Shown here in pieces: positions 8,026 through 11,609 of a DNA stretch of 32,000 nt (positions are counted from its first letter, which is position 1; each line of letters opens with the position of its first letter). The notes under the pieces were generated by a model. The model did not search any database. It was not told where the DNA came from and saw only the letters and a program-made list of their open reading frames with translations. Position numbers and translations under genes: made by a program. This DNA is from Moraxella nasicaprae. GTDB taxonomy: Bacteria > Pseudomonadota > Gammaproteobacteria > Pseudomonadales > Moraxellaceae. The stretch lies in NCBI RefSeq assembly GCF_025643275.1, contig NZ_CP089977.1, forward strand, positions 360,001-392,000. The letters are read 5' to 3'.

Positions 8026-9882
8026 ATGTCTTCTATTGCTTTACGCCGTGCCATCATTTTGGCATTAGCCCCAACAAGCATGTTAGCTGCCCATGCCCAA
8101 ACAGGCGAACCAACCACTACGGTCGAGCTTGACCCTGTGGTCGTTACTGTCACCAAGACCCCCACCAAAACCAGCAATCTGGTCGCCCAAACCAAAGTTT
8201 TGACCGCCAAAGAATTGGCACATTATCAAGGTCAAAATCTATTTGATGTCATCAAAAATCAAGCTGGCATCAGCTCATACAATAGTGGTGGCACTGACAA
8301 AGCCAGCAATTTTTATATGCGTGGTTTTGACAGCAAAGGTGTCTTAGTCATCATCGATGGTATGCGTTATGGCAGTTTGACCACAGGTCAGCCAGCACTT
8401 GGGCTACTTTCCGCCAACGAAGTGGAGCGAGTAGAAATCCTATACGGTGCATCGGGTTCTAGCGTCTATGGTGCAAATGCGATGGGCGGTGTAATCCAAG
8501 TCTTTACCAAAAAAGGCAGTGCTGATGGCTCAAAAATCGCTCTCACAGTCGGAGCAGGTTCACACGACAGTTTTAATTATGGCATTAGTGCAGGATTTGC
8601 AAACGAAAACACCAAGCTAAATCTATCTGCCAATCACAGCGAAAGCGATGGCATTAACACCATCGTTACCCCATATCACGCCCAAAGCCGTGATGAAGAT
8701 GGTTTTGAACGCCAAAGTGCCAGCCTAGCCCTAAGCCATCGTGCTGGTCAGTTTGAAGCTGGTCTAAACGCCCTAGCCAGTAAAGCCGATGTCGAATACG
8801 ATAACACTTGGTCAGACCAAAGCGACATTCGTGATAAGCAAAAAGGCGGTGCGGTAAGCATCTATGGCACTTATCATTATGGCAATGGCAGTGATGTCAA
8901 AGTGCAATATGGCGAATCTTTGGACGAAAGCAAAAACTTTGCTGGGGCAACCATGACGGGTGAATATCAAAGCCGTCAAAAACAAGCCAACCTATCTTTG
9001 ACGCACGCCATCGGTGCTGGCAAAATTCTAGCAGGTGCTGAACACCTAAAACAAGAAGTAGAATCAAGCGTGGCATACGCCCAAACCAAGCGAGATAATA
9101 CTGGCGTCTATGTTGGCTATCAAGGCACGCACGACAAACTTGATGCACAAGCCTTTGTTCGCTATGATGATAATTCTTGGTACGGCAAGGACACTACCTA
9201 TAATGCAGGTCTTGCCTATCGCATCACGCCAAATCTACGAGTGGGTGCAAACTATACCACAGGTTTTCGAGCCCCAACCTTCAATGACCTATATTGGCCA
9301 GGTGGTGGTAATCCAGACCTACAACCAGAAACCAGCAAAAACAGTGAAGCCTTTATCGAGCTGACTGGCAATCATCACAAAACTCGTCTGACAGGCTATC
9401 ATAGCGATGTCAAAGACTTGATTGCTGGCTGGCCTGCCAAAAACATCAATAAAGCCAAAATCACAGGAGCGACCATCAGCTCAGATTGGCAGTTTGGTCA
9501 CTATTTGGCTGGTGTCAGCTATGATTATCAAGATGCCAATGATGTTACCCCAAATGCACTTGGCGAAAAAACCAAATCCGACCTAGCATTCCGCCCAGAG
9601 CATAAGGGTACAGCGTATGTAGGCTATGCACACGATGATTTTAATGTCCGTGCTGAATACCAAAAAGTTGGTAGTCATTATGCAGGCAGCAATCATAGCA
9701 GCAAAATGCAAGGCTATGGCTTGCTTAATCTAAGTGGCACATACGAACTAACGCCACACATCAGCATCACACATCGTTTCAATAACATTTTGAACAAAAA
9801 ATACACCACCAACGAAAGTTGGGGTACTCGCTACAATGCTGATGGTGCTAATGTTCACACTTCGGTTACTTTCAAATACTAA
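8026..9882 (+). CDS. TonB-dependent outer-membrane receptor (small BtuB-size class, about 618 aa)
   Basis: Signal peptide MSSIALRRAIILALAPTSMLAAHAQ, TonB-box-like LDPVVVTV, plug-domain motifs NFYMRGFDSKGVLVIIDGMR and VERVEILYGASGSSVYG, beta-barrel ending in an aromatic residue (TFKY). Substrate unknown. Confidence 0.85.
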   Translation: MSSIALRRAIILALAPTSMLAAHAQTGEPTTTVELDPVVVTVTKTPTKTSNLVAQTKVLTAKELAHYQGQNLFDVIKNQAGISSYNSGGTDKASNFYMRGFDSKGVLVIIDGMRYGSLTTGQPALGLLSANEVERVEILYGASGSSVYGANAMGGVIQVFTKKGSADGSKIALTVGAGSHDSFNYGISAGFANENTKLNLSANHSESDGINTIVTPYHAQSRDEDGFERQSASLALSHRAGQFEAGLNALASKADVEYDNTWSDQSDIRDKQKGGAVSIYGTYHYGNGSDVKVQYGESLDESKNFAGATMTGEYQSRQKQANLSLTHAIGAGKILAGAEHLKQEVESSVAYAQTKRDNTGVYVGYQGTHDKLDAQAFVRYDDNSWYGKDTTYNAGLAYRITPNLRVGANYTTGFRAPTFNDLYWPGGGNPDLQPETSKNSEAFIELTGNHHKTRLTGYHSDVKDLIAGWPAKNINKAKITGATISSDWQFGHYLAGVSYDYQDANDVTPNALGEKTKSDLAFRPEHKGTAYVGYAHDDFNVRAEYQKVGSHYAGSNHSSKMQGYGLLNLSGTYELTPHISITHRFNNILNKKYTTNESWGTRYNADGANVHTSVTFKY

Positions 9883-9894
9883 CCCTAAATGTGC

Positions 9895-9928
9895 AAAAAA
9901 AAAGACGGCTGATTGGTCGTCTTTTTTG
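9895..9928 (+). terminator. Rho-independent terminator after the receptor gene
   Basis: aaaaaaaaagacgg-ctgattgg-tcgtctttttt. Confidence 0.75.
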
Positions 9929-9970
9929 TCAGTTGGAGCATGGTAAGCAGATGAAATCCGAAGTCTTTTT

Positions 9971-9979
9971 TGTTATAAT
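9971..9979 (+). promoter_or_regulatory. Extended -10 element TGTTATAAT for ahcY
   Basis: Exact TGnTATAAT. The predicted start near 9986 lies just before the structured leader. Confidence 0.45.
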
Positions 9980-9987
9980 GATACATC

Positions 9988-10086
9988 GCCAAGAGATGTT
10001 GCAACTTTTTAAGCAGATTGTTTGATTAAAAAGTCAGGCTTGGTTTAATTATGATTCATCAAATAATTATAAAACAACGACATCTG
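9988..10086 (+). promoter_or_regulatory. Candidate SAH riboswitch (SAH_riboswitch class, AU-rich variant) in the ahcY 5' leader
   Basis: P1 ccaag (9989-9993) / cttgg (10039-10043). P2 ctttttaa (10005-10012) / ttaaaaag (10026-10033). Optional hairpin taattat (10046-10052) / ataatta (10063-10069). Pseudoknot agatgt (9994-9999) / acatct (10080-10085). Unpaired ttgcaac, tcaggc and caacg occupy the positions of the conserved UGCrAC, CAGGC and AACGG as I recall the consensus. The genomic context (ahcY) is the canonical one. Confidence 0.5.
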
Positions 10087-10119
10087 CCTATTTCTTTTTT
10101 ACCGATAAGGAGTGGACAG

Positions 10120-11484
10120 ATGTCTACATTCACTGACTACAAAGTCGCCGATATTTCACTTGCTGAATTTGGTCGCAAAGAGATTAAACTTGCTGAAACC
10201 GAAATGCCTGCCTTGATGGGTCTGCGTAAACGCTATCAAGATGCTCAGCCCTTAGCTGGTGCTAAGATTGTCGGCTGTATCCACATGACCATTCAAACAG
10301 CCGTTTTGATTGAAACGCTGGTGGCATTAGGTGCAGAGGTTCGTTGGACTTCATGCAATATCTTTTCTACCCAAGACCACGCTGCCGCTGCCATTGCTGC
10401 TGCTGGCATTCCTGTCTTTGCGTGGAAAGGCGAAACCGAAGAAGAATATGAATGGTGCCTAGAACAACAAATCCACAAAGACGGACAGCTTTGGGACGCT
10501 AACCTAATCCTAGATGACGGTGGCGATTTGACCGCTTTGATTCACAACAAATACCCACAAATGCTAGACACCATTCACGGCATCAGCGAAGAGACCACCA
10601 CAGGCGTGCATCGTTTGATTGACATGCTAAACAAAGGCGAGCTAAAAGTACCTGCCATCAATGTCAATGACGCTGTCACCAAATCCAAAAATGACAACAA
10701 ATACGGTTGCCGTCATTCACTCAACGATGCCATCAAGCGTGGTACGGATATGTTATTGGCTGGTCGTCGTGCCTTGGTCATCGGCTATGGCGATGTGGGC
10801 AAAGGCTCTGCTCAGTCTCTACGCCAAGAAGGCATGATTGTGCGTGTCAGCGAGATTGACCCCATCTGTGCAATGCAAGCATGTATGGACGGCTATGAAT
10901 TGGTGTCGCCTTATGTGGGTGGCGATGCTGCTAATGGCGTCAATACTGCCCTACTTCAAGATACCGACCTTGTCGTTACCACCACAGGTAACTACCATGT
11001 GTGCGATAGCCAAATGCTAAAAGCCCTAAAATCTACGGCTGTGGTCTGCAATATTGGGCATTTTGATACCGAGATTGACACTCAATTCATGCGTGACAAC
11101 TGGAAATGGGTAGAAGTAAAACCACAAGTTCATCAAGTCTATCGCTCAAACGATGAATCTGATTATCTGATTTTGCTATCAGAGGGTCGTCTTGTCAATC
11201 TGGGTAATGCCACAGGACACCCATCACGCATTATGGACGGTTCATTCGCCAATCAGGTATTGGCTCAAATCCATCTTTATCAAGAAAAATTTGCTGATTT
11301 GCCAGCATCTGAAAAAGCTCAGCACCTGTATGTCAAAGTCCTACCCAAAAAGCTGGACGAGGAAGTTGCTGCTGCCATGGTTGCAGGCTTTGGTGGTGTG
11401 ATGACCAAGCTAACACAGGAACAAGCAGACTATCTGGGCGTGCCTGTTGAAGGTCCTTTTAAATCCGAAGAATATAAATACTAA
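10120..11484 (+). CDS. ahcY: Adenosylhomocysteinase (S-adenosyl-L-homocysteine hydrolase)
   Basis: [71 protein letters not shown] (NAD site), NIGHFD.EID. The ATG at 10120 follows aaggag (10107-10112). Confidence 0.92.
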
Positions 11485-11535: not shown

Positions 11536-11600
11536 TTAAAAATATCAAATTACCATCAAGCACTCATCACTGAATTTCAATTAACAAATCAGCAAAAACC

Positions 11601-11609
11601 TGTTATAAT
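11601..11609 (+). promoter_or_regulatory. Extended -10 element TGTTATAAT for metF
   Basis: Exact TGnTATAAT 59 nt upstream of the ATG at 11668. Confidence 0.4.

Follow-up and report, generated by a model that had tools for sequence, protein, structure and literature searches.

The 32,000-nucleotide (nt) stretch of Moraxella nasicaprae DNA analysed here (positions 360,001 to 392,000 of contig NZ_CP089977.1, assembly GCF_025643275.1; hereafter the window) carries, upstream of the S-adenosylhomocysteine hydrolase gene ahcY, a leader element at positions 9988-10085 that is very probably a bona fide S-adenosylhomocysteine (SAH) riboswitch aptamer, homologous to the Rfam family RF01057, for which we propose a role as a translational ON switch. 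The element lies, like ahcY and the other leader features, on the forward (+) strand, begins 8 nt past an extended -10 box and ends 35 nt ahead of the ahcY start codon at 10120. Homology to SAH riboswitches, first suggested by an original prediction made from the letters of the window, is upheld by evolutionary intermediates, by covariation of the pseudoknot, and by a family-specific covariance model that scores the site at 45.8 bits.

The most telling evidence comes from 100 ahcY leaders, drawn from Moraxellaceae and from other gammaproteobacteria and cut at the unpaired anchors UGC, AGGC and AAC; pair statistics refer to the 72 distinct trimmed sequences among them, and the alignment (A1) extends to members that RF01057 scores at as much as 64 bits. 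The consensus cited in the original prediction (CCGAG/CUCGG for helix P1, GAGCGC/GCGCUC for the pseudoknot P4) fits these high-scoring members. Twelve combinations of P4 strands occur, all paired at 6/6 positions: GAGCGC/GCGCUC, GGGCGC/GCGCCC, GAGCGU/ACGCUC, GGGCGU/ACGCUC, GGGUGC/GCACCC, GGGUGC/GCAUCC, GGAUGC/GCAUCC (Acinetobacter), GGAUGC/GCAUCU, AGAUGC/GCAUCU (M. osloensis), AGGUGU/GCACCU and AGGUGU/ACACCU (the Psychrobacter type), and AGAUGU/ACAUCU (the genus of the window). Full pairing would be expected in just 23/81 cross-combinations of these strands, and none of 20000 shuffles kept all twelve combinations paired. Over the distinct sequences P4 is 100% paired, with changes on both sides in 5/6 pairs and a single pair, G-C at columns 11/44, that never varies; when the partners are slid by 1-3 columns as a control, pairing falls to 30-39%.

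The remaining helices behave in the same manner. P1 is 95% paired, with compensatory change in 4/6 pairs; its outer pair swaps between C-G and G-C among genus leaders, and the form found in the window, CCAAG/CUUGG, also occurs in two gammaproteobacterial leaders with GC-rich pseudoknots (L114, the classic GAGCGC/GCGCUC; L137, GGGCGU/ACGCUC). P2 varies among relatives in length and in sequence, with compensatory changes, and both P2 and P3 vary freely across the genus while their pairing is kept. RNAalifold, applied to 15 genus leaders, predicts P4, P2 and P3 with double changes in 8/16 pairs, and each P3 pair is changed on both sides in 2-9 sequences. At 29/30 genus loci the leader reads CCAAGAGAUGUUGC, a variable P2, GUCAGGCUUGG, a variable P3 and AACAACGACAUCUG, with TATAAT just upstream. 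Covariation in orthologous leaders, proposed beforehand as a check, is thus seen in P1, P2, P3 and P4, and the view that the P1 and pseudoknot differences are compensatory is sustained by a graded series across related genera. This series indicates that the P4 of the genus has drifted from GAGCGC/GCGCUC to AGAUGU/ACAUCU via compensatory changes, with one P1 pair going from G-C to A-U.

Independent evidence is provided by a covariance model (R1) built from 36 elements, none of them from this genus; the named-Moraxella leaders L070-L072 were left out, and only P1 and P2 were annotated as pairs. R1 matches window positions 9987-10088 with 45.8 bits (E ~9e-11), whereas the next best match in the window reaches 8.8 bits, so the likeness to SAH riboswitches lies far beyond chance. 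Exactly one match, adjoining ahcY in each case, is found in 32/42 genomes of the genus (ahcY itself is present in 40/42 species genomes), and a single ahcY-linked copy is found in 125/151 genomes of the family. The window's own genome carries a single copy; three loose pattern matches elsewhere in it were rejected as second copies, as they have neither P1 nor the 3' pseudoknot strand.

RF01057 itself performs poorly at this site. A scan of the window at Rfam gathering thresholds matched no family, and a relaxed scan of 9880-10200 (E<=10) did not list RF01057; the eukaryotic small nucleolar RNA and small RNA matches that it did return, at E 0.1-7, are implausible and were dismissed as noise. 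When the whole genome (2.1 Mb) was searched with RF01057, the top match fell on window positions 9985-10092 (full length, model positions 1-78) with 16.4 bits and E 1.3, against a gathering cut-off of 37 bits, an operational and not a biological criterion. The forecast that a covariance scan would score this instance low was therefore right, and the RF01057 scan that had been proposed gave a divided answer, with no match at gathering thresholds or in the relaxed local scan, and with the site as top match genome-wide. The score of this top match proves nothing alone, and only its location is suggestive of a riboswitch. Across the Moraxellaceae, RF01057 exceeds its cut-off in 55/151 genomes, at up to 64 bits, with scores declining genus by genus toward Moraxella; at E<=1 there are few or no matches in the groups g1 (0/16), g25 (1/17) and g34 (4/16; probably Psychrobacter), and among the matches listed for these three none reaches the cut-off. 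RF01057 misses the window site because both pseudoknot strands have changed together, and the model, which cannot represent a pseudoknot, reads the strands as conserved sequence.

The leader is organized as expected of the class. P1, formed by GCCAAG (9988-9993) and CUUGGU (10039-10044) and found both in the minimum free energy (MFE) fold and by covariation, encloses the P2 hairpin with an asymmetric internal loop, and P4 joins the 5' side of the P1-P2 internal loop (AGAUGU, 9994-9999) to the 3' tail (ACAUCU, 10080-10085). The unpaired UGC (10000-10002), followed by an A at 10003, leads into P2 (10004-10034; ACUUUUUAA at 10004-10012, a loop, and UUAAAAAGU at 10026-10034), which in the window is long and nearly all A-U. 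A C and the binding-core AGG follow (10035-10038), the unpaired block CAGGC occupying 10035-10039; beyond P1 lie an optional P3 hairpin (10046-10072), which can pair UUAUGAUU with AAUUAUAA (10049-10056 with 10065-10072) or adopt a UAAUUAU/AUAAUUA register, and the conserved linker ACAACG (10073-10079), which includes the unpaired block CAACG (10075-10079). Upstream, a promoter at 9951-9979 comprises a -35-like ATGAAA, a 17-nt spacer and the extended -10 TGTTATAAT (9971-9979); the promoter scan scores ATGAAA-17-TATAAT with TG at 10/12 matches, the -35 being weak. Transcription should start at ~9986, 1-2 nt ahead of P1, and a TATAAT box 8-12 nt 5' of P1 is also found in genus leaders. The promoter -10, P1, P2, hairpin, pseudoknot, unpaired blocks and alternative helix are all present where the original prediction had placed them. 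The MFE fold of 9985-10135 contains P1, P2, P3 and a start-codon hairpin at -36.4 kcal/mol, a stability with z = -3.69 relative to dinucleotide shuffles, 1/200 of which fold equally well.

The nucleotides presumed to bind the ligand are those that change least. Unpaired UGC, AGGCU and AAC are invariant in the alignment (columns T13 G14 C15; A30 G31 G32 C33 T34; A39 A40 C41), as the original prediction had expected of the conserved single-stranded positions. For this class, Wang et al. 2008 and the crystal structure 3NPQ of Edwards et al. 2010 are cited, and structural facts taken, through the secondary sources PMC7057144 and PMC11790956. In 3NPQ, SAH is contacted by G15, C16, A29 and C46 and binds in a groove that adjoins the pseudoknot helices (PMC7057144). 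The G and C of the window's UGC most likely correspond to G15 and C16, and by position the four contacts would all lie within the invariant blocks.

At the 3' end of the aptamer, the 3' pseudoknot strand takes part in a second, competing structure, a 46-nt hairpin at 10079-10124 with a predicted stability of -19.2 kcal/mol. Its outer helix pairs GACAUCUG (10079-10086) with CAGAUGUC (10117-10124), a perfect 8-bp complementarity that includes the AUG at 10120 and that the sequence confirms as originally described; its inner helix, worth -6.8 kcal/mol alone, pairs the anti-Shine-Dalgarno (anti-SD) strand CUAUUUCUU (10088-10096) with AAGGAGUGG (10107-10115), which contains the SD sequence AAGGAG (10107-10112). 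An equivalent hairpin is the MFE fold of the platform in 29/29 genus leaders examined, in agreement with the earlier suggestion of an alternative pairing that buries the start codon, and is still predicted in three of these leaders that have 190-260-nt insertions folding back on themselves. In most species of the genus ahcY starts with GUG, accompanied by CGCAGUGUC and a bulged U, while the window and three relatives have an AUG start and an unbulged outer helix; the two types differ on both sides of the helix extension (CUG-CGU with ACG-CAG versus CUG-UUUAU with AUAGA-CAG). The sequestering helix is represented by 9 distinct sequence pairs. Psychrobacter and M. osloensis have this 3' strand too, and where the pseudoknot strand differs between genera, it does so at a wobble-tolerant pair and at the bulge; in Acinetobacter, CCGCG pairs with AACGCGG of codons 2-3.

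As positions 10080-10085 are required both by P4 and by the hairpin that covers the SD and AUG, the two predicted structures are mutually exclusive, and the shared strand is consistent with the logic of an SAH-activated ON switch. In the model that we propose, the 3' pseudoknot strand would pair with the start-codon region when SAH is scarce, and the outer helix, together with the inner anti-SD/SD helix, would lock the ribosome-binding site within the 46-nt hairpin. Accumulation of SAH would stabilise the pseudoknot and pull 10080-10085 out of this hairpin, leaving only the weak inner helix, such that ahcY could be translated. We infer SAH binding and the ON response from homology and structure.

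Several observations weigh against this interpretation. RF01057 falls well short of its gathering score here, and two sister genomes (G013 and G023) have matches of 17-18 bits away from ahcY, so that the RF01057 score at this site, taken alone, amounts to noise. The anchor pattern used to cut the leaders confined the pseudoknot strands to purine/pyrimidine classes and thereby excluded some mismatches beforehand. In the platform, conservation outweighs covariation in the 3' strand (GGACGCAGUGUC) of the sequestering helix, and part of this conservation could reflect constraints on translation start. The AU-rich pseudoknot duplex is also weak, at -4.8 kcal/mol versus -9.6 for the classic type, and the competing outer helix contributes about -12 kcal/mol; switching would thus need energy from the ligand, tertiary contacts or co-transcriptional folding. 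Finally, modelling of the ON state leaves the inner SD helix in place.

Alternative explanations differ in how much of this reading they would leave intact. The aptamer may be real and the switch may act mainly on transcription or mRNA fate, through Rho-dependent termination or RNase access, and not on translation initiation alone. An untranslated leader with a sequestered ribosome-binding site often invites Rho, a U-rich tract follows the pseudoknot 3' strand in most genus leaders, and with no terminator between ahcY and metF, polarity could carry control downstream. We nevertheless regard this account as unlikely, since the SD and start codon are precisely what the conserved alternative helix covers in 29/29 leaders, metF has a strong promoter-like site of its own at 11581-11609, and a scan of 9850-10200 contained no intrinsic-terminator-like site, a result that also led us to drop an intrinsic terminator as the expression platform. 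Retention of all unpaired core nucleotides and of the invariant G-C pair (columns 11/44), an unchanged ahcY-metF-rsmE context, and an equally constant gene context in the Acinetobacter, Psychrobacter and M. osloensis intermediates all make it distinctly improbable that the rewritten AU-rich pseudoknot has altered ligand affinity or specificity, with a different SAH threshold or another adenosyl compound being sensed, even though the duplex has half the classic stability, 5/6 of its pairs differ from the crystallised type, and the SAH groove adjoins the changed helices (PMC7057144). A related and rather improbable suggestion, prompted by the halved pseudoknot stability set against the much stronger start-codon hairpin, is that the AT-rich Moraxella/Psychrobacter lineage has retuned the switch, by a shifted SAH threshold, co-transcriptional-only action or another ligand preference, with the ahcY context kept.

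Other explanations would remove the switch altogether. Were the element a decaying relic that no longer binds a ligand, with the leader hairpin setting a constitutive low level of translation, one might expect losses of the kind observed in some members of the genus (the UGC/AGG core missing from the leader in G012 and G057, no element in G007 and G056) and tolerance of the ~170-260-nt repeat insertions that lengthen P3 in several species. Decay would not keep complementarity, however, and perfect pseudoknot pairing and an invariant core at 29/30 genus loci, despite free variation of P2 and P3, render a relic very improbable; the insertions, moreover, are either confined to the tolerant P3 loop or self-folding. 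That the resemblance arose by chance in an AT-rich leader has next to no probability: the low RF01057 score and its absence from the relaxed local scan would fit, but this explanation is refuted by the R1 score (45.8 bits versus 8.8 for the next match), by the continuous evolutionary series with covariation in P1, P2, P3 and P4, and by the constant position adjoining ahcY. A translational SAH riboswitch thus remains our preferred reading.

Repeat insertions and exceptional leaders were encountered in the course of the comparison. In several larger Moraxella genomes, P3 is extended to 256-261 nt (L015, L016, L017, L023, L070) or 172 nt (L030) by sequences that sit between the P1 3' strand and the AACG linker; the P3 base stem is kept, and a long hairpin forms (-80 kcal/mol in L016). 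Matches to the inserted repeat family number at least 40-62 in each of the genomes G004, G002, G042 and G024, and are absent from the genome of the window. The insertion has the appearance of a mobile element resembling miniature inverted-repeat transposable elements or repetitive extragenic palindromes that landed inside the aptamer without removing it. Separate insertions of 120-190 nt lie between the 3' pseudoknot strand and the SD in L013, L024 and L037, and in the latter two the inverted repeats AGGGCGTGTT and AACACGCCCT border the insertion; the predicted fold still joins GACAUCUGCG to CGCAG(U/C)GUC around the start codon. Two ahcY leaders, L155 (G012) and L026 (G057), share a different sequence, GCCAUCAAGAC(A/G)CAUUU...UGUCUUUUCUUGAU, without the UGC and AGG core, which looks like a decayed aptamer; L157 (G007) and L158 (G056) lack the element entirely, and L156 (G053) is an unusual variant that has additional sequence beyond AGGC and AACA in place of AACG. 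In a genome of another Moraxellaceae genus, contig G110:C25 has two SAH-riboswitch matches on the same strand, ~550 nt apart (25266-25375 and 25923-26006; 50.9 and 54 bits, both above the Rfam cut-off), which could represent a tandem or duplicated arrangement.

The presumed target gene, ahcY (10120-11484), encodes a protein with Pfam AdoHcyase (E 2.5e-126) and AdoHcyase_NAD domains, whose closest named relative is AhcY of Moraxella caprae (92% identity), with neighbouring matches in Psychrobacter and Acinetobacter. It is followed by metF and by rsmE, which encodes an RsmE-type methyltransferase, so that the aptamer stands 5' of SAH-recycling genes, as is characteristic of the class. The N-terminus read from 10120 aligns with relatives; a longer open reading frame (ORF) of 477 amino acids from an in-frame ATG at 10051 was ruled out, as this codon lies inside the variable P3, lacks an SD and is unconserved. 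Gene callers that favour the longest ORF would thus misplace the ahcY start and hide the leader from 10051 to 10119. The 183-nt ahcY-metF spacer contains a strong promoter-like site (11581-11609; TTAACA-17-TATAAT with TG, 11/12 matches) and no terminator-like site was found between the two genes; metF-rsmE may hence be transcribed both by read-through and independently, and may lie partly outside riboswitch control. On the other side, right after a TonB-dependent receptor gene, positions 9897-9930 consist of an A-run, a GACG...CGTC hairpin and a T-run (aaaaaaaaagacggctgattggtcgtctttttt), and look like a bidirectional terminator insulating the ahcY promoter, although our simple scan did not call this site.

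These results point to a blind spot in annotation, in which lineages that change both pseudoknot strands together drop below the RF01057 threshold. The difference between 55/151 genomes for RF01057 at its cut-off and 125/151 for the family model implies that censuses and regulon reconstructions (for instance, "2 of 4 Moraxellaceae") undercount the class. The family also offers a natural P4 covariation series, in which 5/6 pairs are exchanged and all intermediates are extant, illustrates the tolerance of the aptamer to large repeat insertions in P3, and shares a start-codon-sequestering platform, which both Moraxella and Psychrobacter have conserved and to which a helix in Acinetobacter is analogous. 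The novelty has its limits: this is a divergent yet architecturally ordinary member of its class, with no new ligand, fold or regulatory principle.

In betaproteobacteria and a part of the gammaproteobacteria, SAH motifs are on record 5' of ahcY, metH and metF (Weinberg et al. 2007, PMC1950547), and the SAH riboswitch, which activates ahcY, binds its ligand with nanomolar affinity and prefers SAH over S-adenosylmethionine (SAM) ~1000-fold (PMC7057144). A regulon reconstruction by Leyn et al. 2014 (PMC4239095) reported it in 2/4 Moraxellaceae genomes and assigned ahcY, metF and COG1385 (rsmE) to its targets; the four comprised two Acinetobacter and two Psychrobacter, with no Moraxella, and our literature search found no mention of a Moraxella SAH riboswitch. 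Like RF01057 members, the element described here has the P1-P2-(P3)-P4 pseudoknot fold, invariant UGC, AGGC and AAC(G) left unpaired, the leader position at ahcY-metF and the expected activation by SAH; it differs in the exchange of 5/6 P4 pairs and one P1 pair for A-U/U-A, in a long, nearly all A-U P2, and in a predicted pseudoknot stability of about half the classic value. With the Acinetobacter and Psychrobacter riboswitches it has in common the ahcY-metF-rsmE operon and a 3' pseudoknot strand that, together with its GCG extension, pairs into the opening codons (in Acinetobacter, CCGCG to AACGCGG; in Psychrobacter and Moraxella, CUGCG to CGCAGUGUC), whereas the pseudoknots themselves differ (GGAUGC/GCAUCC in Acinetobacter, AGGUGU/(G/A)CACCU in Psychrobacter, AGAUGC/GCAUCU in M. 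osloensis and AGAUGU/ACAUCU in the window). The SAM/SAH riboswitch of Rhodobacterales metK is likewise a small pseudoknotted SAH-binding aptamer acting on translation, and none of its features was seen in the window, where no search was aimed at them; its fold, however, is unrelated, a simple H-type pseudoknot that does not discriminate between SAM and SAH, and it turns metK OFF and occurs in alphaproteobacteria alone (PMC7367207, PMC6411933).

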